A stretch of 64,000 bases of DNA from Candidatus Zixiibacteriota bacterium (GCA_020853795.1 JADYYF010000044.1:1058-65057); one strand, 5' to 3'; counted from the first letter of the stretch, positions 42,480 to 53,674 are shown. The notes: a model not told the origin generated them from the letters alone. A program made the numbers and translations.

Positions 42480-42488
42480 GGAACCGAT

Positions 42489-42562
<74 letters not shown>

Positions 42563-42798
42563 TTTTATCAAACTCGTCTCCCCTGGGTATCCCATCCAAG
42601 TTCAGCTTAGACGGTTTCCTTGGCTCTTCACTTGAGCCTGAGGACTCGAACTCCCGCCGCCTAAGTAATCGGGCATCTCCCGACTCGCCTTCGCGAACGA
42701 CAGCGCCAGACCTGAGCCGCGCTTCTGAGGTGAGTCAGTGTCAACTCAGAATTAGCAAACTATGACAATAATTCTTTGAGTTCGACTTCAGAAAATAC

Positions 42799-42827: not shown

Positions 42828-43043
42828 AATGTATCGAAAAGTCCAGATTTGGAGCCGGTTGACAACGGCTTCTGAGTGAATCTGTTTCTCTGGATCACAG
42901 GGACGTCCTCGAACTCCGACCTGCAGTCAATAATCTACTAGTGGAGCGGGAGGTGTCCATAACTGACGTTGGCGTATCATGCATTATGATACGATGGGCC
43001 TGGTCCCATAGGTCACTACTAACCCACTACAGGAGGATTTGCA

Positions 43044-43157
43044 ATGATCTATTTGATCGATCCGCAGAATCCAGGCATCGAAGTCTGCATCTTCAAGTTC
43101 CTCTGTCCGAAGGATAGGGTCGTTCCGTGCTACGGAATCGATCCCGTCGAGATTTGA
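43044..43157 (+). CDS. RiPP precursor peptide, 37 aa: MIYLIDPQNPGIEVCIFKFLCPKDRVVPCYGIDPVEI (absent from the ORF track)
   Basis: Hand translation; AGGAGG RBS at 43031-43036, 7 nt before ATG; three Cys and a C-Y-G motif; followed by a hairpin and two radical SAM genes. Confidence 0.88.
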   Translation: MIYLIDPQNPGIEVCIFKFLCPKDRVVPCYGIDPVEI

Positions 43158-43169
43158 GGTGACGGATCC

Positions 43170-43196
43170 GCAGAGAGGGGCATCGCCCCTCTCTGC
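43170..43196 (+). terminator. 12-bp hairpin after the precursor (mRNA stabiliser or leaky terminator)
   Basis: GCAGAGAGGGGC-ATC-GCCCCTCTCTGC followed by CTTT. Confidence 0.75.
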
Positions 43197-43425
43197 CTTT
43201 GGTTGAGTTCCGGCAGATTCCTCCTCCCAGGAACAGCACAATTTCACTGACGCATTTCTTGCGAGCGAGGTGGTGCCACCAAGTTGAAATGGACACAGAC
43301 GACCCGAGTTCTCCTGACTTTGATCTTGCCGGATCCGTGCGAAGCTTTGAGGCGGTGGAGACAGTCGGGAATAAGCAAGATTCGATAGTGCGTTAGGTGC
43401 GTTTGCTGGTAGCGAGCATGACACG

Positions 43426-44775
43426 ATGAGCAGAGTATCACGCTACAATCATTTTCAACAATGGCAAGGCGGTTATCGGATCGCCTTCAATGCCTTCACC
43501 GGTGCCCTCGCCCTGATGACCGAGGACAACTTTCAAACATATCAGAAACTGGCGGCCAAGCTCTCCAACGGTAATTCTGCGCCAATCCTGACCGATGCGG
43601 AACGGGAGCTGCTTCAACAACTCGAGCATGGCCGCTTCGTTCATCCTGACGACTGTGACGAGTTGCAAGCACTCAAGTTCACCCACGGCAGCGCCCGCTT
43701 TGATCGCACCGCACTGGCCTTGATCGTTGCTCCCACTTTAGCCTGCAACATGGCCTGTCCCTACTGCTTCGAGAACAACAAGCGCGGCAAGATGACGCCG
43801 GAGATCGCCGATCAGATCGTCGGATTCGTCAGCCGCCAAGCCAAGACCCTGACTCAGCTTGATCTCACCTGGTACGGCGGCGAACCGCTGCTGGCCCTCG
43901 ATGTCATCGAAATCCTGTCGCGCCGCCTTATCGGAATGGCAAATGATGAGTCCTTCACTTATCGAGCCTCGATCATCACCAATGGCTATCTCCTGGATCG
44001 CGACAGCGTCGACACGTTGGTCGACCTGAAAGTCGGCGTGTGCCAGGTGACGCTGGACGGCCCCGCGCGGTTGCACAATATTCGGCGCCCGCTCAAGAAC
44101 GGAAGAGACAGCTTCCAGACGATCGTTGACAATCTCAAGTACGCTGCCGGCAGGTTGGTCGTCTCCGTGCGAGTGAACATCGACAAGAGCTTCAGTTCCG
44201 CCGACGTTGCCGAGTTGCTGACGGAACTAAAGGCCGCAGGCCTGCAGCAGCGCGTATCGGTCAACTTCGGAATGGTTGAGCCGTCGTCCGCCACTTGCGC
44301 CGCCGTCGCCGAAGCCTGCTATGAAATTGCCGATTTCTCGCAGGTGGAAATCGGATTTTATCGGCAATTGCTCGACAACGGCTATGGCGTTGAGAAGCTG
44401 CCCAGCCCCTGTGCGGTCTTCTGCATGGCGCAATTGGTCAACGCCTTTTTGGTCGATCCGGACGGGAATCTCTATCGCTGCTGGAACTACGTCGGCGATC
44501 CGGCGAAGACCATGGGGCATATCCGCGACAAGATTGACTATCAGAATGCGAATTTCGTCAAGCTCTTCGCTATTGATCCGTTTGTTGATCCGCTCTGTCG
44601 TGACTGCGACATTCTGCCGGTTTGCCTGGGGGGCTGCCCATCCAATCGCGCCGACCGCGGCCTGACCGGCGAGCAGGCCTGCCAGAGCTGGAAACACAAT
44701 CTTTCTCCGATGCTGGAAATTATTGCGCGCTCGCGAAGCCAGCGGGCGGCATCTACACCCAAGGAGCAATCATGA
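43426..44775 (+). CDS. Radical SAM/SPASM peptide maturase with N-terminal RRE-like extension
   Basis: About 95-aa N-terminal extension (SRYNHF...IAFNAFTGALALM); CNMACPYC; WYGGEPLL; TLDGP...HNIRR; SPASM cysteines CAVFC, YRCW, CRDCDILPVCLGGC. Confidence 0.92.
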   Translation: MSRVSRYNHFQQWQGGYRIAFNAFTGALALMTEDNFQTYQKLAAKLSNGNSAPILTDAERELLQQLEHGRFVHPDDCDELQALKFTHGSARFDRTALALIVAPTLACNMACPYCFENNKRGKMTPEIADQIVGFVSRQAKTLTQLDLTWYGGEPLLALDVIEILSRRLIGMANDESFTYRASIITNGYLLDRDSVDTLVDLKVGVCQVTLDGPARLHNIRRPLKNGRDSFQTIVDNLKYAAGRLVVSVRVNIDKSFSSADVAELLTELKAAGLQQRVSVNFGMVEPSSATCAAVAEACYEIADFSQVEIGFYRQLLDNGYGVEKLPSPCAVFCMAQLVNAFLVDPDGNLYRCWNYVGDPAKTMGHIRDKIDYQNANFVKLFAIDPFVDPLCRDCDILPVCLGGCPSNRADRGLTGEQACQSWKHNLSPMLEIIARSRSQRAASTPKEQS

Positions 44776-45884
44776 CCGACTTCAAGTTCTATCCACGTTC
44801 CGTAGTCTGGGAGACTACTTTTGCCTGCAACATGCGGTGTCTGCACTGCGGCACCGCTGCCGGCAAGAAACGGCCCGACGAACTGACCACCGCCGAAGCC
44901 CTGAACATGATCGACGAGCTGGCAGCGCTGGGAGCCGAAGACATCACGCTCTCCGGCGGCGAACCGCTCCTTCGGGATGACTGGCTGATCCTGGCCAAGC
45001 GAATCCGCGAGCGCGGCATGAAAGCCCTGATGATATCGAACGGCCTGGCCTTCTCCGATCAGGTGGTGCAGGATATCATGAGTGTGCCGTTGAACAAGGT
45101 CGGAGTGAGCTTTGACGGTACCGAGACGACGCACAACTACATCCGCCAGCGCGACGACAGTTTCAGCGGCGCGTTGAACGCCATGCGCCTGATGCGTAAG
45201 CACGGTTTCCGCCAGTTCTGCGCCGTGAGCCAGATCTCGAATATCAATATTGACGAGATGGATGCCATCCGCCGCATCCTGATCGATGTCGGCTGTCCTC
45301 AATGGCGAGTCCAGCTCTGCACCTCGACCGGCCGCATGCGGGACAACCGTGACTTGATCCTCTCGCTCGACAATTATCCGCGCCTGATTGACAAGCTGAT
45401 TAAACTGCAGGAACATGATGACGAAATCGTCATTGATGTCGGTGAGAACATTGGCTACTACGGTCAGGCCGGCAATCAACTGCGCCAGGGCAACCCGTAC
45501 TGGGGCTGCTATGCGGGCACCCGGATTCTCGGTATCGAATCCAACGGCGCCATCAAGGGATGTCTGTCGATGCCGGAGGAATTTGTCGAGGGCAACCTCC
45601 GCGAGAAGTCGCTGGCCGAAATCTGGAATAACCCGGACGGCTTTGCTTACAACCGCCAGTTTACGCGCGACACGGCGAGCGGCGAGTGCCATGACTGCCG
45701 GTACCTGCCGCTGTGCCGCGGCGGTTGTGCGACAACCTCGGTCTCGGCCACCGGCTGCCGCGCCGACAATCCCTACTGCATTTACCGAATGGAGCAGCAG
45801 CAAGGATTCGCAACGCCGCCGGACAGCGAGTATGTGGCCGCATTGCTGGCCAAATTCCCGCCGGTGGCGAAGGAAAGCCGGTAG
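44772..45884 (+). CDS. Second radical SAM/SPASM enzyme, resembling PlpX-type spliceases
   Basis: ATG 44772 (AAGGAG RBS, ATGA overlap); VWETTFACNMRCLHCG; GENIGYYG; GCYAG; LGIESNGAIKGCLSM; CHDCRYLPLCRGGC; DNPYCIYR; no N-terminal RRE. Confidence 0.85.
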   Translation: MTDFKFYPRSVVWETTFACNMRCLHCGTAAGKKRPDELTTAEALNMIDELAALGAEDITLSGGEPLLRDDWLILAKRIRERGMKALMISNGLAFSDQVVQDIMSVPLNKVGVSFDGTETTHNYIRQRDDSFSGALNAMRLMRKHGFRQFCAVSQISNINIDEMDAIRRILIDVGCPQWRVQLCTSTGRMRDNRDLILSLDNYPRLIDKLIKLQEHDDEIVIDVGENIGYYGQAGNQLRQGNPYWGCYAGTRILGIESNGAIKGCLSMPEEFVEGNLREKSLAEIWNNPDGFAYNRQFTRDTASGECHDCRYLPLCRGGCATTSVSATGCRADNPYCIYRMEQQQGFATPPDSEYVAALLAKFPPVAKESR

Positions 45885-45928
45885 TTTCGAGGCGCCGGAA
45901 CTTGAGCCCCCGGCGCCGGCGATCGCTC

Positions 45929-47689
45929 ATGTCATTCAGCACCACCAAGGCACGACGGCTGTGGCCGTTTCTCAAGCCGTATTGGCGCCACGAACTGGTC
46001 ACCCTGATCGTCATGCTGGCGATTACGGCGCTGATCCTCGCCGTGCCGTTGACGGTGCGGTATCTCGTCGACGTCCTCATACCCGAATTGATTCGATCCG
46101 GTGCCGCCGGCGCTATCGACCTCTCGCCGGTCGTCTGGTTCGGACTCGCCTTGGTCGCCATCTACCTGTTTCAGGTTGTCCTGACCGGGGTGCGCGACTA
46201 CTTCGTTGGTTTCATCGGGGCCCGCATCATTGCCGACATGCGCTCCCACCTGTTTGCGCATCTCGAACGGCTGTCACTGAGATTCTTCCAGACACACAAG
46301 GTCGGTGAGGTGATGTCGCGATTCCTCGCCGATGTCTCGCGCATTCAGGATCTCCTCTCGTCCACGCTGCTTGTGATTCTGAACAACTTCCTGCTCTTGT
46401 TCGGCGTGCTCGCCTATCTGCTCTATGACAACTGGCAACTGACTCTGATTGCAATCATTCCCGTGCCGGTGACGATTCTCGTGACCGGCGTCCTGAGCAA
46501 ACACATTCACTCGACGGCGCGCGGACTTCAGGCGACTGTAGCGACGCTGTCGGCCGCCATCCAGGAACTCCTGGTCGGACTCAAGATCGTCAAAGCCTTT
46601 GGCCGGGAGGATGCCGAGAACAAGAAAGTCGATGGGATCATGTCCGGCCTGACCGGATTCTACGTCAAGTTCAGCGTGCTCCGCTCGGTCGCCGGCAACG
46701 GCATTCAGTTTGTCAATGCGCTCGGTCCGATCATCGTTCTCTGCGCCGGTGCCTACCTGGTCGCCGTCGGCACGATGCAGCTCGGACAGCTCTTCGCCTT
46801 CTACATGTATCTGTCGCTGCTGTATAGCCCGGTCCAGAGTCTGGCCGGTTCGCGCATCGAGGTCGCCGCCGCCATGGCCTCCGTCGAGCGCATCTTTGAG
46901 TATCTCGACCTGCCCCCCGCAGTCGAGGAGGATCCCGCGCCGGTCCGGATTGGCAAGATCCGCGGCGATATCAAGTTCACCGAAGTGAATTTCTCCTACG
47001 GCGACTCCAATTTTCGCATCGACAACCTGAATCTCCACATCCCCGCCGGCGAAACCCTGGCGTTGGTGGGACCGTCCGGCTCCGGCAAGACGACAATTAT
47101 CAACTTGATCATGCGTTTCTACGACCCTGATTCCGGCATCATTGCCGTCGATGGCGTGGACCTGCGCCGGCTCTCCCTACAGACTCTGCGCGACAATATT
47201 GCGCTCGTGGATCAGGATCCGCTCCTGTTTAACCTGACGATCGGGGAGAATATCGCCTATTCCGATCCTGCCGCGACCAGCGAGCAAATCCAACGGGCGG
47301 CGCGGATCGCCAACATTCACGATTTCATCTCCGGTCTGCCGCACGGTTACGACAGCATGGTCGGCGAGCGCGGGGTAACCTTGTCCGGCGGCGAGAAACA
47401 GCGGATTTGTCTGGCGCGCGCCTTGTTGAAGGATCCGCCGATCCTGATCCTCGACGAGGCGACCAGCGCCCTGGATTCAATCTCGGAGCAACTGATTCAG
47501 GATGCGCTCGACAAGGTGCTGGTGGGGAAGACTGCCATCATCATTGCGCACCGCCTGGCGACTGTGCAGCGTGCCGACTGGATCATCGCCCTCGACGGCG
47601 GCCGCATCGTCGCCCAAGGAACGCACTCCGAGCTCCTGGGCTCGTCGGCACTCTATCAGGAGTTGTCGCACAAGCAATTGCGGGCGTAG
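45929..47689 (+). CDS. ABC exporter (TMD plus NBD), no C39 peptidase domain
   Basis: GPSGSGKTT, LSGGEKQR, ILDEATSALD, IIAHRL; ATG 45929. Confidence 0.93.
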   Translation: MSFSTTKARRLWPFLKPYWRHELVTLIVMLAITALILAVPLTVRYLVDVLIPELIRSGAAGAIDLSPVVWFGLALVAIYLFQVVLTGVRDYFVGFIGARIIADMRSHLFAHLERLSLRFFQTHKVGEVMSRFLADVSRIQDLLSSTLLVILNNFLLLFGVLAYLLYDNWQLTLIAIIPVPVTILVTGVLSKHIHSTARGLQATVATLSAAIQELLVGLKIVKAFGREDAENKKVDGIMSGLTGFYVKFSVLRSVAGNGIQFVNALGPIIVLCAGAYLVAVGTMQLGQLFAFYMYLSLLYSPVQSLAGSRIEVAAAMASVERIFEYLDLPPAVEEDPAPVRIGKIRGDIKFTEVNFSYGDSNFRIDNLNLHIPAGETLALVGPSGSGKTTIINLIMRFYDPDSGIIAVDGVDLRRLSLQTLRDNIALVDQDPLLFNLTIGENIAYSDPAATSEQIQRAARIANIHDFISGLPHGYDSMVGERGVTLSGGEKQRICLARALLKDPPILILDEATSALDSISEQLIQDALDKVLVGKTAIIIAHRLATVQRADWIIALDGGRIVAQGTHSELLGSSALYQELSHKQLRA

Positions 47690-48881: not shown

Positions 48882-51800
48882 CTAACGCAGCAGCACCATC
48901 GTCCGTCCGACCCGCGTCGATGAAGTCCTTAAGACGTAGTAGTAGACACCTGATGCTACCGGCAGCTGCCGATCGTCACGACCGTTCCACGTCAGTTGAG
49001 TCTGACCTGCCGGACGCGTCCCCTCCGATAACAGCCGGACTTGCTGACCGCGGATATTGTACACCGTCAACGAAATCCAGTCCGCTTTTGGCAAGTTGAA
49101 TTCGATAACCGTGGTCGGATTGAATGGGTTGGGACGATTTTGGGACAGTTCGACTGCATCAGGAAGAACCGCAGCTGGCGCGCCCGCCATCGCATCGAGA
49201 ATTCCGATCAGTTCAGTGCGCCCGCGGCTTTCCGGGCAATCAATCAGCGCCCGGCGGATCTTGCTCCAATCGAATTCACCCGCGTGCCCGGCAAGAGCGC
49301 CGTCGTCGCCGTCCTCACCGGCGCGCCCCATGCCGGCAATCGTCTTCAGCCAGTTGTCTGCGACTCCGCAGATGTCTTCGGCTTCCACGGCGCCGTTACC
49401 GTCGGCGTCGGCGTAGATCGCGGCGTAGGGCGACCAAGCATTTTCGCCCAGCACAACGCGCGCCAGGTGGCGCGACCAAAGCCAATCACCGTCGCCTCGT
49501 GGCGGACCCTGGATGTCGAAGTACCGTCCAATCGGCAAGACATCGCGTTCATCAACGATGCCATTATGGTCAGTATCACCCGGCCAAACTGCCGCTCCAG
49601 TGACAAACGTTCGCACCGAGTCGCGACTGCGCAATGGGATGCCGTCGGAAGTCGTCAGGCCCGGACTGATGTGGATGATCACCGAGTCAAGTTCGAGAAA
49701 TTCGTCTCCCGCAGCCGGGGCGACGATCAGCGTAACTCGATCATTCGCCGTCACGACGTCTGTGGTACAGCCGGCGCCTTTGCGACTCTCGACCACAACC
49801 GCCTCAAGTAGGGTCGCGGTGCTGATCAGGCCGTTAAATGGCAGGCTGATCACTTCATTGATCTGAACGCTCCCCAGGATCGGCGGTACTGTCAATGCCA
49901 GCGACTTGCCCGCCACTAGGGTCACACGCGCATTGCCGCCATTTGAGAGCAAGTCAATGTGGGCCCAATGGTATCCCGAGGCCAACTGTGAACTATCGAC
50001 CGCAACTGCAACCTTGATGCTCCCGCCGACCGCGATGGTCCCATTTCCGGGGCTGAGTGCGAGCCACGGAACATCGGCGCTTCCGGACCATTCGAGTTGC
50101 GCTTCGCCGTGATTCTCGATAGACAGCTCCGCTGCAACAGCGTCGATCACGAACCGGACGGTATCGGGCTGGACGGCGATAATCGCTCCGGGCCGGACCC
50201 CGATCGAGAGTGAGTTTGTATCCGCCAGAAATCCGTCACTGGCAATCAGGCTGACGGCATAGGTGCCGACTTGGTCAAGTTCCGGCGTGAAGGCAATCTC
50301 GCCGCTTCCGCTGCCGCGGTCTGTAAAGGTTGCGTGCGGCGGGACTCCCAGCGCGCTCAGGGTCAGGGGGTCGGAGTCGGGATCACTCGCCTCCACCGCG
50401 TGAATCAGTGTCTGACCGACGTGCATCACCGTATCCCGAACCGTGACCCATGCCGGCCGGCGATTGACATTGGTCACCGTAATTGTCACGCCGGCACTGA
50501 CAGAGAATACGCCGTCGGTTGCCGCAAACGTGACCACATGCACACCGCTTTGCGCATATGACGGCGTCCAATTGAACTGCCCGCTGCCGTCGCCGTGGTC
50601 GCTGAACGTAGCGCCTGGCGGCAGCCCCGAGGCGCTTAACGTTGGAATCGTGCCGTCCGGGTCGGTTGCCGTGACTTCAATCTCGATCGGCTGCTGCTCG
50701 GCAATTTCGCGGTCTGCGATCGGCGCAATCACCGGCGGACGATTCGTGCCGGTCACAACAATCGCAACGTCGGCGGTGTCGCTCAATGTGCCGTCGCTGG
50801 CCAAGAACCGCACCGCGTATTGTCCCGCCTGGCCAAAATCTGGCGCAAAGGTAAAGCGACCTCGTCCTCCACCAAGATCAGTAAACGTGGCGTTCTGCAT
50901 CAGGTTCACAGCGGTGAGCCTCGGCGCTGTGCCGTCCGGATCGCTGGCGCTGATCTCCAGCACGAGCGTCTCACCCTCGGCAACCGTATCATCCGCAATC
51001 GTCGCAAAGACCGGTGGACGGTTGACGTTGGTCACTGTTATCTGCACCGACATCGTATCGGCAAGTTCACCATCGTTGGCAAAGAAGGTCACGGTGTAGG
51101 TGCCTGCCTGTTCGTAAGAGGGGGTGAAGGTCAGACTGCCGCTGCCGTCGCCGTGATCAGCGAATGTCCCGTTCACCGGCAGCGCTCCGGTACTCAGATC
51201 GGGGATATCCTCATCCGGATCGTCAGCCGCCACCGCGAGAATCAGCGTTTGACTCTCCAGGATCGTCGTATCTGCCCGCTCGACGAACACCGGCGGCCGG
51301 TTGAGCGTGCAACCGACTGGATAGACACCCATCCCGCCACAGGTCGTATGTGCCGCCGCACACGGCGAAGTCGCCGCAATCGTGAAGTTACTGCCGGCAG
51401 CATTGCAGAAGAGTGGATCGGCGGCAATGTTCCCACGCAAACCGAGTTGTCGCGACAAGACCCCCACCCAGTTGCCGCCGGCATTGCCGTATATGTCGGT
51501 GCACGTGATCGTCATGCCGATGATGCCGTCGGCATCATCGATGCCCGGGCCGGTCGTGGAATTGGCGATGATGCAGTTCGCCATCATGATCGGACCGACA
51601 TAGTTCCCCTCAACGTTCGGGTCAATGCCGGTCTTGTTGTTCACAAATGTCGAGTGATTGATGCTCAATGTTCCGACCTGCGCCAGATAGAGCCCGCCGC
51701 CGGTCGATGCCGTGTTGCCGGAGAAGAAGCACGAATCGATGCTGACGGTGTTCTCCTCCGACCAATAGATCGCGATCGCCCCGCCGTTCGTCTGCGCGCG

Positions 51801-53504
51801 GTTACCGACGAGATCGCATTTGGTCACGGTCAGATTGTTGCCATAACTCTCGATCCCGTTCCCGGTGCCGTTGCTGATGGCACAGCCGGTAACCGTCAAG
51901 ACTGACTGCAGCGCGCGAATGGCACCGCTTTCTCCGAGAGCATTGGTTACTGACGACCCGAACTGGCAGCCGCTGATTGTTGCGGTAGTGCCGCTCCACA
52001 TGCGGAGTCCGTACCCGGAATTGCCAGTGATGCGGCCGCCGGTGATGGTGATATTCGCGCTCGTCTCCAGCTGCACGCCGGCACTGTCGTTGTTCTGAAT
52101 GACACAGTTCTCGATCCGGGCCTGCGAGCCGCTGCGGCAATAGATCCCCCGGCCGGTGCTGCCCTCGATTATGCAATTGCGGATCGTTGGCGAAGCCGTC
52201 CAGCAGAAGACAGCGGCACCATTGCCGCCGCTGGCGTTGCGGATCGTGAATCCCTGCAGCACGACTCCGCCAGGGGCGTAGTAATCATAATTGAAGCCGG
52301 GATAAAGCCCCTGACAATCGATGATCGTTGTTGCCGGACCCGCCGATGAGACAATACTCACCGGGCGTTCACCGAAGCTGCCGATGTTGCAGTTGGAGGC
52401 ACCGGTATAGGTCCCGGGCGCCACGCGCACGGTTCCCGGCGAGCGCAAACCGAACGCGGTATACGCGGCACTGATCGTCGCAAACTCCGAGGGCACATCG
52501 TGAGTCCCGGTGATGTCGAAGCGGTTTGCCGCAGAGAACGCAGAACCGATCCCCGTGTAGTTCGCCTGCACCCGCCAGTAATAATGCGTATTGAGGTAGC
52601 CGCCGGAATTTGGCAACGGCGTGGTGAGCGTGTAGGAACCCTCTGTGATTCCGGTATAGGTACGGGGTGTGGGAAAGCTCGCACTCGTGTCCACTTGGAG
52701 CGTGTAGTTGGCGCCGTCGTCCGACCAGGTGAAGGTGGGTAAGTTGTTCTCAATCGTGGCCAGATTGGCCGGCGAAATCAGCGTCGGCGTTACCACCGTG
52801 AATTTGATGCGGCGCACCAAGTCGACGTATATCGCGCCCTTGCCGCTGTAGGAGCCGATCAGTACGGAGACGGCGGCAAGATCCGAAAACGCGCCCGCTG
52901 TCGGTTCCTGAAGCGAAATCGTCGTCCAGGCGTTGGTGGGCAACGCACTCGTCCAGCCGACATAACTGAACACGGTATCGCCCGGCTTCATGTAGCCGAT
53001 CATCGCGTATGCCGTTGCGGAAAAGGACTTGTAGATGCGCGCTTCAATTCGACTGGCGCCATCCCAGGTGGCTGGGACCGGGGACTGGATCGACTTGATC
53101 TGCCAGCTATAGTGGCAGCTGTCCGTATAGTAACCGTCAAAGGCACAGGTCATTTGCGCCGATCCGGTTCCGCCAAAGCTGCTCCAAGCCAAGGCGAATG
53201 GCGATCCGACTGCTTTCATTCGCGTGCGCTCGACGCAGCGAACATCGGGGTAGTACTCCTGCACGGTATCGGCGGTGTGGAAAAAAGTCCAGCCGTCGAG
53301 ACTGCTGGTGAAGTTGTAGGCAAGGGTATCGTACCCTTGTGGCTCAAGCAGTTGCTCCCGTGCGAATACTGGTCCTTCTGGCTCCGTTTCAGTCGGTCGT
53401 CCAGCCAATGAAGATGGTGTCGAACCCTGAGCGAGCGAAGATAGCAGAAGACTCATCAGGCCGAGGAGAGCTGCCCGGACGGAATAAGGGACAAGCGAAC
53501 TCAT
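48882..53504 (-). CDS. Large secreted modular protein: beta-sandwich, FN3-like, right-handed beta-helix, four Ig/cadherin-like repeats, BACON-like, dockerin-like, FlgD/T9SS-like C-terminal domain
   Basis: Signal peptide; parallel beta-helix repeats; WPGDTDHNGIVD and DADGNGAVEAED; LSQNRPNPFNPTT...SGVYYYVL; ATG 53504 with GAGG RBS. Confidence 0.8.
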   Translation of the reverse strand: MSSLVPYSVRAALLGLMSLLLSSLAQGSTPSSLAGRPTETEPEGPVFAREQLLEPQGYDTLAYNFTSSLDGWTFFHTADTVQEYYPDVRCVERTRMKAVGSPFALAWSSFGGTGSAQMTCAFDGYYTDSCHYSWQIKSIQSPVPATWDGASRIEARIYKSFSATAYAMIGYMKPGDTVFSYVGWTSALPTNAWTTISLQEPTAGAFSDLAAVSVLIGSYSGKGAIYVDLVRRIKFTVVTPTLISPANLATIENNLPTFTWSDDGANYTLQVDTSASFPTPRTYTGITEGSYTLTTPLPNSGGYLNTHYYWRVQANYTGIGSAFSAANRFDITGTHDVPSEFATISAAYTAFGLRSPGTVRVAPGTYTGASNCNIGSFGERPVSIVSSAGPATTIIDCQGLYPGFNYDYYAPGGVVLQGFTIRNASGGNGAAVFCWTASPTIRNCIIEGSTGRGIYCRSGSQARIENCVIQNNDSAGVQLETSANITITGGRITGNSGYGLRMWSGTTATISGCQFGSSVTNALGESGAIRALQSVLTVTGCAISNGTGNGIESYGNNLTVTKCDLVGNRAQTNGGAIAIYWSEENTVSIDSCFFSGNTASTGGGLYLAQVGTLSINHSTFVNNKTGIDPNVEGNYVGPIMMANCIIANSTTGPGIDDADGIIGMTITCTDIYGNAGGNWVGVLSRQLGLRGNIAADPLFCNAAGSNFTIAATSPCAAAHTTCGGMGVYPVGCTLNRPPVFVERADTTILESQTLILAVAADDPDEDIPDLSTGALPVNGTFADHGDGSGSLTFTPSYEQAGTYTVTFFANDGELADTMSVQITVTNVNRPPVFATIADDTVAEGETLVLEISASDPDGTAPRLTAVNLMQNATFTDLGGGRGRFTFAPDFGQAGQYAVRFLASDGTLSDTADVAIVVTGTNRPPVIAPIADREIAEQQPIEIEVTATDPDGTIPTLSASGLPPGATFSDHGDGSGQFNWTPSYAQSGVHVVTFAATDGVFSVSAGVTITVTNVNRRPAWVTVRDTVMHVGQTLIHAVEASDPDSDPLTLSALGVPPHATFTDRGSGSGEIAFTPELDQVGTYAVSLIASDGFLADTNSLSIGVRPGAIIAVQPDTVRFVIDAVAAELSIENHGEAQLEWSGSADVPWLALSPGNGTIAVGGSIKVAVAVDSSQLASGYHWAHIDLLSNGGNARVTLVAGKSLALTVPPILGSVQINEVISLPFNGLISTATLLEAVVVESRKGAGCTTDVVTANDRVTLIVAPAAGDEFLELDSVIIHISPGLTTSDGIPLRSRDSVRTFVTGAAVWPGDTDHNGIVDERDVLPIGRYFDIQGPPRGDGDWLWSRHLARVVLGENAWSPYAAIYADADGNGAVEAEDICGVADNWLKTIAGMGRAGEDGDDGALAGHAGEFDWSKIRRALIDCPESRGRTELIGILDAMAGAPAAVLPDAVELSQNRPNPFNPTTVIEFNLPKADWISLTVYNIRGQQVRLLSEGTRPAGQTQLTWNGRDDRQLPVASGVYYYVLRTSSTRVGRTMVLLR
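50195..51302 (-). repeat. Four tandem 93-aa (279-nt) Ig-like repeats within the large protein
   Basis: Repeats begin with N-R-P/R-P at 51302, 51023, 50744 and 50465 (exact 279-nt period); DPD and DG motifs recur. Confidence 0.85.
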
Positions 53505-53674
53505 CAAAAACCTCAAGAGAATAGTTGTTGTGGAGAGATGTCGTGTCCGTGGATGACCTGATCCATTTTAAGGTAAATCATTGCCATAAAATAGCAAGCG
53601 AGATTAATGTCGCGCCCAAACGTTTGTTGGAGCCTTCATGTTCGGCCATCTAATGTCGATAAACCAATAAACGA

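Follow-up and report, generated by a model that had tools for sequence, protein, structure and literature searches.

What would two radical S-adenosylmethionine (SAM) enzymes make of a peptide of 37 residues? The question is raised by positions 43,044 to 47,689 of a 64,000-nt stretch of DNA from Candidatus Zixiibacteriota bacterium (GCA_020853795.1 JADYYF010000044.1:1058-65057; hereafter the window), where an open reading frame (ORF) for a short Cys-containing peptide precedes two radical SAM genes and an exporter gene. A sequence-only reading of this stretch had proposed a cassette for a RiPP (a peptide synthesized by ribosomes and then post-translationally modified), in which two enzymes, here rSAM1 and rSAM2, act on the same peptide to install thioether bridges and, by PlpX-type excision of tyramine, a ketoamide. 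Our comparative analysis leaves very little doubt that the RiPP cassette is genuine and that the small ORF encodes its precursor, and it supports that interpretation as the best overall explanation. That both chemistries run as predicted is slightly better than an even bet. The precursor, its 3' hairpin, rSAM1, the ATGA-overlapping rSAM2 and the ATP-binding cassette (ABC) exporter were all recovered in place, and the four genes are as follows.

43044..43157, + strand: precursor peptide, 37 aa, MIYLIDPQNPGIEVCIFKFLCPKDRVVPCYGIDPVEI (ORF, comparative conservation)
43426..44775, + strand: rSAM1, RiPP recognition element (RRE) - radical SAM - SPASM peptide maturase, 449 aa (domains, fold model)
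44772..45884, + strand: rSAM2, minimal radical SAM - SPASM enzyme, 370 aa, without an RRE (domains, families, tree)
45929..47689, + strand: ABC exporter with fused membrane and ATPase domains and an MsbA-like fold (ABC_membrane and ABC_tran)

The rSAM2 ATG overlaps the rSAM1 stop codon as ATGA, which we checked in the sequence, and 44 nt separate rSAM2 from the ABC exporter gene.

The strongest result of our analysis is that the small ORF is a real, conserved precursor family and not a chance ORF, as the sequence-only reading had assumed in calling it a precursor. An AGGAGG stands 7 nt ahead of its ATG, and the encoded peptide combines the leader MIYLIDP (M1-P7) with Cys15 (43086-43088), Cys21 (43104-43106) and the predicted splice motif P28-C29-Y30-G31-I32 (43125-43139). 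Relatives of rSAM1 number more than 1500, and a scan with one genome per species gave 79 loci: a close set of 29, in which rSAM1 is 47-95% identical, and a distant set of 50, in which it is at most 39% identical. The close loci are mostly metagenome-assembled genomes of Zixibacteria, the rest being labelled Calditrichaeota, FCB group, Ignavibacteria or Thermodesulfobacteriota. A homolog of rSAM2 (58-98% identical) lies directly after rSAM1, often overlapping it, in 29/29 close loci and is absent from all 50 distant ones; the claim that the two enzymes belong together is borne out by this adjacency. Upstream of the enzyme pair, a small same-strand ORF of 31-48 aa is found in one to four copies in 27/27 related loci with upstream sequence. 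Homologs of the radical SAM genes that lack a similar upstream peptide, which had been named as a finding against the proposal, were not seen among the close loci with upstream sequence.

We aligned 39 peptides, taken from the window and from 27 related loci (28 sources in all; handles such as L001 denote individual loci). The window precursor is 100% identical to the L003 peptide and 92% identical to the L001 peptide. The leader follows the pattern M-[I]-[YF]-L-[IV]-[DE]-P, in which Pro7 never varies, and the first Cys occupies position 15 in 27 of the 39 peptides. Each aligned peptide has 2-5 Cys, a range that widens to 2-6 across the family when database clusters are included, sometimes with an odd number. 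P-X-Y-G is present in 38/39 locus peptides, the Pro being invariant and Val or Ile coming next after Gly; X is Leu in 28, Met in 6 and Cys in 5, and 3-10 residues always lie C-terminal of the motif Tyr. The single exception, in L014 (4765-4884), reads PLYS in place of PLYG. Two precursors carry two sites: that of L024 (5647-5772), ...PLYGVPLYGVEV, has a duplicated site, and that of L018 (1725-1871) contains ...PTYGQPQPLYG together with a Trp-rich core. In the window precursor, Cys15 and Cys21 are the only family-level Cys, and Cys29 is not a conserved cross-linking residue because it is the X of XYG, which is Leu in most relatives, including the L001 peptide. With Cys29 as X, splicing at this site in the window would leave a thiol next to the ketoamide.

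A hidden Markov model of the peptide, run over the six frames of the window, found exactly one copy, at 43044-43157 (E = 1.1e-13), and no further precursor copies; on the 50 distant loci, which lack rSAM2, it gave no match below E = 0.1. A profile search of 5.8 billion proteins returned 153 further peptide clusters at E <= 0.01, all of them unnamed or 'hypothetical' and without a Pfam domain, and no named family for the peptide emerged, as nothing in Pfam or NCBIfam was significant even at E <= 10. Among the best 120 of the 153 clusters, in which we tallied the motifs, 120/120 have P-X-Y-G and 117/120 the leader motif; X, tallied in 118 of the 120, is Leu in 95, Met in 16 and Cys in 7, and the other two read PLYG. 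The X-Y-G site, already singled out from the window alone, is the feature that the peptide family as a whole conserves best. Codon differences between the window and L001 amount to 8 synonymous and 3 non-synonymous in the precursor and to 91 and 40 in rSAM1. The precursor is therefore under purifying selection, the corresponding counts for a neighbouring spurious ORF being 8 and 30. The cassette is widespread, recurring in far more than a hundred genomes of uncultured Zixibacteria-type bacteria.

The first enzyme belongs, as its relationships support, with the radical SAM/SPASM maturases of Cys-rich peptides that carry an RRE-type N-terminal domain. It contains Radical_SAM and SPASM (TIGR04085, 56.9 bits against a cut-off of 27) domains, and its CX3CX2C motif (C107/C111/C114) and complete 7-Cys SPASM motif are invariant in 21 homologs. 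Since both motifs are complete and invariant, rSAM1 should be catalytic. The suspected RRE-like N-terminus is visible in the AlphaFold2 model (pLDDT 81.9), where residues 8-91 form three strands and three helices in the beta3-alpha3 topology of an RRE. The top Foldseek match of the model is CteB, a thioether synthase that has an RRE at its N-terminus (5why; E = 5e-19, 455 columns, full length), which is also the nearest PDB sequence (5wgg/5why); CteB-type enzymes are 15-22% identical to rSAM1 in structural alignments. Its best NCBIfam match is TIGR04334, the Clo7bot maturase (344 bits over the full length, cut-off 600), followed by TIGR04463 'rSAM vs C-rich' (288), the Cys-every-fifth family CefB (226) and the geopeptide maturase (201). 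Characterised thioether synthases score lower against their cut-offs (PapB 131/340, SCIFF maturase 94.5/425, QhpD 86.8/453). Together with the N-terminal half of the precursor, whose leader plan matches that of the Clo7bot peptides (see below), rSAM1 forms a Clo7bot-like module, and from these relationships and the conserved Cys we predict that it is a Cys cross-linking, thioether-forming enzyme.

The second enzyme begins directly with the radical SAM core (Pfam Radical_SAM 82 bits, SPASM 38.7 bits). Its CX3CX2C residues C19/C23/C26 and SPASM residues C246, C264, C306, C309, C315, C319 and C336 are invariant in 30 homologs. The PlpX-type affinity that had been proposed for it is corroborated by its two best NCBIfam matches, TIGR03913 (GDL-motif peptide-associated maturase, 251 bits, cut-off 592) and TIGR04103 (nif11-class maturase 3, 245 bits, cut-off 725); the third-ranked family scores 183 bits and MftC 143 bits (cut-off 265). 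TIGR04103 is, we take it, the same entry as IPR026482, and hence PlpX's family. PlpX itself has been assigned to IPR026482 (PMC11002830). In tblastn searches of annotated plasmids, an upper tier at 35-40% identity holds GDL-motif and nif11-class-3 maturases with a few unnamed enzymes, and all others, MftC and TIGR04053 among them, fall in a lower tier at no more than 31%. Compared with PGAP-annotated plasmid members of TIGR04103 and TIGR03913, which served as our splicease-type set, rSAM2 is colinear over residues 1-345 and shares the signature blocks VWExT..CN..C.HCG, NxGYYG, GCxAGxxxGxExxGxxKGC and NPYC. A neighbour-joining tree (no bootstrap) places the rSAM2 family with enzymes of Nostoc, Azospirillum, Aureibacter, Tropicibacter and Agathobacter, and leaves MftC and a PqqD-associated radical SAM enzyme outside that clade. 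rSAM2 is thus clade-level kin of the splicease-type families, in a subfamily of its own, and it is the smallest enzyme of its clade seen here. No solved splicease structure was found in the PDB by sequence or fold.

Proteins encoded beside these relatives also carry X-Y-G sites. The Nostoc Nif11 precursor ends ...SIALYGLPPELF (...IALYGLPPELF) and is followed by a PlpY-like small ORF, and the DUF1843 proteins of Azospirillum and Aureibacter contain RPYGP and QPYGAG, respectively. On an Agathobacter rectalis plasmid (NZ_CP143948.1; L085, 2297-2404), an unannotated 35-aa ORF, MFNLEELSLEFVKISELKTSKNLFGPVMYGTGVRM, contains PVMYGT. It is located 80 nt upstream of the genes for a 'radical SAM protein' of splicease-like type and a major facilitator superfamily transporter, and would seem to be a short spliceotide precursor that has escaped recognition in this human gut bacterium. 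Characterised spliceases excise a tyramine equivalent at XYG with a loss of 135.06 Da, the resulting ketoamide being required for protease inhibition (PMC11626197, PMC11414181, PMC9811515), and X is Met or Leu at native splice sites (PMC11626197). The invariant P-X-Y-G-[V/I] and the splicease clade of the enzyme make tyramine excision the best reading for rSAM2.

The pathway that we infer for the cassette, with regard to both chemistries, their order, the export step and the role of the product, is the following. The precursor would probably be overproduced from a short transcript bounded by the 5' leader and the 3' hairpin, with read-through supplying the enzymes. The RRE of rSAM1 would bind the very short leader M-I-Y-L-I-D-P, and radical chemistry would then join the conserved Cys (Cys15 and Cys21) to carbon atoms of other core residues, giving thioether macrocycles of the ranthipeptide/sactipeptide type. 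rSAM2 would abstract a hydrogen from Tyr30 of P-X-Y-G-[V/I] and excise a tyramine equivalent (C8H9NO, -135 Da), and the ABC transporter would export the product. By analogy with characterised spliceotides, the ketoamide may act as a serine/cysteine-protease warhead in a constrained scaffold. Two modes of rSAM2 activation are conceivable. The enzyme has a conserved C-terminal tail, P-x-D-x-E-x-V-x-x-L-L-x-[KR]-F, whose residues 353-359 are modelled as a helix (block mean pLDDT ~87), and this tail may be a built-in activator comparable to engineered X-Y fusions. Alternatively, the RRE of rSAM1 may hold the leader so that the peptide is offered to rSAM2, a mode of action that would account for the strict pairing of the two genes and their frequent translational coupling. 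We consider it possible, at somewhat less than even chance, that the family is a natural hybrid RiPP class, with one or more thioether-bridged macrocycles and a ribosomally derived ketoamide introduced by a minimal splicease that needs neither Y protein nor leader helix and is either self-activated through its C-terminal tail or activated by rSAM1.

Several observations weigh against the combination of thioether formation and splicing. rSAM1 and rSAM2 both stay below the curated cut-offs of all named families, so that function is transferred across 35-40% identity. The spliceases characterised to date need an activating helix, provided by a Y protein in type I systems or by a long precursor leader in the binary types (PMC11414181). 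The present leader has about 14 residues and thus no long activating helix as in known spliceases, no Y-like small gene lies before or after rSAM2 or is conserved in the related loci, and the enzyme does not have the 60-150-aa C-terminal extension of TIGR03913/TIGR04103 enzymes. As to the thioethers, no conserved acidic or Thr acceptor residue is evident in the precursors, the poor conservation of Cys29 in the family limits the cross-linking assignment, and the binary spliceotides RcsA and RasA carry a simple disulfide between two Cys (PMC11626197). In addition, no conserved leader peptidase, other protease, immunity or regulator gene occurs around the cassette in 29 sources beyond the gene clusters described below.

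These points leave room for other readings of either enzyme. rSAM2 could modify the invariant Tyr without excising it, through a C-C, C-O or C-S cross-link to a neighbour in P-X-Y-G-[V/I], in the manner of a cyclophane synthase or of MftC. Its scores below both splicease-type cut-offs and the missing extension, Y protein and leader helix would fit such an activity; MftC, which also attacks Tyr, is a detectable relative (143 bits, ~30% identity), and Y-G-[V/I] is readable as an aromatic-X-X cyclophane motif. We nevertheless regard this as unlikely, given that the top two families and the tree put rSAM2 with splicease-type enzymes and not with MftC or cyclophane synthases, that the strict Gly after Tyr and the Leu/Met before it reproduce the known splice sites MYG and LYG (PMC11626197), and that the Tyr never stands at the C-terminus and an MftB-like chaperone is missing. 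A similarly low probability attaches to a spliceotide with disulfides, as in RcsA/RasA, in which rSAM1 would not be a thioether synthase and would instead epimerise residues, form another cross-link or serve mainly to bind the leader and present the peptide to rSAM2. The families closest to rSAM1 (Clo7bot, TIGR04463, CefB) are defined only bioinformatically, its scores to characterised thioether synthases are modest (PapB 131, SCIFF maturase 94), and relatives that score similarly include the non-thioether enzymes DynA, anSME and cyclophane synthases, with TigE among the fold matches. Known spliceotides do contain a Cys-Cys disulfide (PMC11626197), and rSAM2 has no RRE of its own. A fixed first Cys and 2-6 Cys, sometimes in odd number, are however not disulfide-like; the families with the highest rSAM1 scores all have to do with Cys-rich peptides, the thioether synthase CteB is the closest match in structure, and the complete, invariant SPASM motif and radical SAM cluster speak for catalysis.

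The small ORF might, in principle, not be the substrate at all, the enzyme pair acting on a cofactor or protein in a coincidental neighbourhood. The ORF has indeed no Pfam or NCBIfam match. Comparison of the loci, however, effectively refutes the idea, which we judge highly improbable: co-occurrence is 100%, gene order and strand are kept, relatives have several copies of the ORF, the ORF is under purifying selection and preceded by strong ribosome-binding sites, and its motif is conserved in 150+ sequences.

The non-coding elements around the precursor, with the tRNA gene that marks the left boundary of the cassette, are listed below.

42488..42563, + strand: tRNA-Met (ARAGORN; Rfam RF00005, 63.6 bits), left boundary and context of the cassette with no functional part in it
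42963..42990, + strand: candidate sigma-70-like promoter, CTGACG-16-TATGAT, a weak 9/12 match
42994..43043, + strand: conserved 5' untranslated leader, with the inverted repeat ATGGGCC...GGTCCCAT at 42994-43009 and the Shine-Dalgarno sequence AGGAGG at 43031-43036
43170..43196, + strand: G+C-rich stem-loop of 12 pairs, 3' of the precursor stop codon and followed by a poor T-run

The promoter included in the sequence-only reading is its one weakly supported element: its 9/12 match is not above the shuffled background, with 4 sigma-70-like matches observed in the region against 2.3 +/- 1.6 expected. A -10-like element (TATGAT/TAATGAT) is kept in L004. Between the window and L004 (rSAM1 69% identical), the sole conserved block outside the enzymes begins near 42985, extends as far as the hairpin's end and comprises the 5' leader, the ORF and the stem-loop; the leader block is nearly invariant while its flanks diverge. 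The inverted repeat of the leader is kept in L004 as ATGGGC...GCCCAT and may fold into a stem-loop that stabilises the 5' end of a short transcript of the precursor. GGAGG-type Shine-Dalgarno sequences are readable upstream of nearly all 39 precursors. Nine of the 12 pairs of the 3' hairpin are G-C, the 70 nt downstream of the precursor have a minimum free energy of -31.5 kcal/mol (z = -3.1), and the stem is conserved in L001, L003 and L004. Most precursors in other loci also have 3' hairpins, unrelated in sequence, with z from -3 to -6.6. The stem-loop is probably a partial terminator or an mRNA-stabilising hairpin.

The only intergenic ORF, at 43199-43396 (65 codons), was considered as a Y-like or second small gene and rejected. 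It looks conserved relative to L001, but its 8 synonymous and 30 non-synonymous differences are those of neutral sequence, and it is also absent where the gap between precursor and rSAM1 is only 75 nt. In the same spacer, the window, L001 and L003 share without change a 26-nt stretch, ACAGACGACCCGAGTTCTCCTGACTT (43290-43330), whose surroundings differ among them. As the ORF that overlaps it is neutral, any function of this stretch would be exercised as DNA or RNA. An 8-bp G+C inverted repeat, GGCGCCGG ... CCGGCGCC (45891-45917), lies in the 44 nt that separate rSAM2 from the ABC gene.

To characterise the neighbourhood, flanking ORFs of 29 sources (the window and 28 related loci) were clustered all-against-all. 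The clusters comprise the two radical SAM enzymes, the ABC exporter, a B12-binding radical SAM protein (13 loci) and sensor kinases (~6 loci), the rest being antisense shadow ORFs. A homolog of the ABC exporter, whose start codon we set by the L001 gene call and in which a domain scan found no C39 peptidase domain, follows the enzymes in 19/29 related loci. In about half of the related loci, a third enzyme that the window does not have lies between rSAM2 and the ABC gene. It is a ~476-aa protein (Pfam B12-binding and Radical_SAM) with weak matches to RiPP C-methyltransferases (L006 8463-9896; L015 8466-9896; L009, L012, L013, L016, L017, L021, L022, L025, L028, L029, L031). Since the precursors of L006, which has this enzyme, and of L010, which lacks it, are nearly identical, it would provide an accessory tailoring step. 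In ~5-6 related loci, but not in the window, a large hybrid sensor histidine kinase or response-regulator gene sits directly upstream of the precursors on the same strand (L009 67-4719; L015 1993-4638; L030 943-5052; L005 19-561; a JGI contig of P0006) and may represent a regulatory link.

The wider flanks hold housekeeping or unrelated genes, on one side those for DprA, a PfkB kinase and a Memo-like protein and, on the other, those for a pyridoxal phosphate-dependent enzyme and a 1544-aa beta-helix/cadherin/FlgD-Ig surface protein. The latter (48882-53516, - strand) is of secreted type, with a right-handed beta-helix, four Big_9/cadherin-like repeats, a BACON-like domain and a C-terminal FlgD-Ig domain resembling a type IX secretion sorting signal, a make-up consistent with an FCB-group organism. 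Between 42600 and 43400, GC content drops from ~0.60 to 0.49-0.53, which marks the left junction of the cassette. tRNA genes also lie beside the cassette in L003, L012 (11836-12050), L022 (5392-5466), L023 (5032-5106) and L031 (11869-11944), and together with the GC drop the flanking tRNAs hint at a location in tRNA-adjacent variable regions.

Zixibacteria-type bacteria, none of which has been brought into culture, are abundant in sediments and groundwater. Among the papers searched, none links Zixibacteria, RiPPs and radical SAM, a search by accession of the TIGR families gave no match, and none of the 26 papers found to mention spliceotides points in its title or abstract to a hybrid with radical-SAM cross-links. 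An earlier bioinformatic mention is possible in Scott et al. 2022 (Chem), which is said to be a survey that typed spliceases in reference proteomes. The protein names given by the sources for both enzymes and the peptide are all generic, and no curated model covers any of them. The components are of known kinds, an RRE-radical SAM-SPASM enzyme on a Cys-rich peptide and a splicease-type enzyme on XYG, and the cassette is not a new category of system. Not described in the literature searched are the obligatory pairing of the two enzymes on one 31-48-aa peptide, a minimal splicease without Y protein or leader helix, the invariant Pro-X-Tyr-Gly signature and this lineage as producer.

If the proposed pathway is correct, its product would be the first spliceotide also bearing radical-SAM cross-links, as far as the literature searched shows, and the first described RiPP family from Zixibacteria-type bacteria. 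Ketoamides are a pharmacophore of compounds that inhibit serine/cysteine proteases, and the 150+ natural core variants around the invariant P-X-Y-G would already constitute a library of ketoamide peptides with constrained scaffolds. Because proteins are already being given beta-amino acids and ketoamide handles by splicing, a small splicease-like enzyme with a 31-48-residue substrate would be attractive for peptide and protein engineering. The family also raises the mechanistic question of how a splicease is activated without a Y protein or leader helix. If the hybrid reading set out above is right, the way in which this splicease recognises its substrate would be new for spliceases, and constrained ketoamide peptides would have a compact route that takes only two enzymes.

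Among known systems, the spliceotides PlpX/PlpY/PlpA (type I, cyanobacteria) and the RhaX/RasX-RasA and RcsX-RcsA systems (Rheinheimera) share with the cassette a colinear radical SAM-SPASM enzyme of the same clade (34-38% identity), a precursor X-Y-G with Leu or Met as X followed by a hydrophobic residue or Pro (Nostoc ...ALYGLPP), Cys in the core (RcsA, RasA) and an adjoining transporter gene. The ...KPLYGVP of the present family is reminiscent of the PlpA3 core, AAMYGVV, and of an engineered tag, PIRPGYGLPI. The cassette differs in that its 370-aa enzyme scores below the cut-offs and ends without the C-terminal extension, and in having no Y protein, Nif11, NHLP or long helical leader (~14 residues here). 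It is always accompanied by a second, RRE-bearing radical SAM/SPASM enzyme, has an invariant Pro two residues before the Tyr, and belongs to Zixibacteria and related uncultured FCB-group bacteria. The GDL-motif system (TIGR03913 with DUF1843; Azospirillum, Burkholderia, Aureibacter) provides the best-matching family for rSAM2, and its substrates have P-Y-G or a similar site near one end. Those substrates are, however, helical DUF1843 proteins of 55-70 aa whose site lies close to the N-terminus, and the system uses enzymes of 475-516 aa, with neither a second radical SAM enzyme nor a Cys-rich core. Mycofactocin biosynthesis is more remote, as the cassette has no MftB-like gene or substrate with a C-terminal Val-Tyr, and rSAM2 stays below the MftC cut-off.

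For rSAM1, the CteB/SCIFF (thermocellin), PapB (freyrasin) and QhpD systems offer the same RRE-radical SAM-SPASM architecture and Cys-containing substrates, but their acceptor motifs (Cys-X3-Asp/Glu, Thr) are not conserved in the present peptides. The Clo7bot system of the Clostridium botulinum group (TIGR04333 peptides with TIGR04334) has, to our knowledge, not been characterised chemically. Its peptides carry no P-X-Y-G tail, it has no second radical SAM enzyme, and of 10 peptides of the present family compared with TIGR04333, only 1 matches it, at 17 bits against a cut-off of 31. The organisation is nonetheless alike, with Clo7bot precursors in tandem copies upstream of the maturase that combine a very short leader, M-x-[FY]-[IL]-x-x-P, with a Cys-rich core about 7 residues further on. 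In C. botulinum, the seven tandem peptides follow M-[KR]-[FY]-I-x-x-P-x7-C, the same leader plan as MIYLIDP-x7-C in the window.

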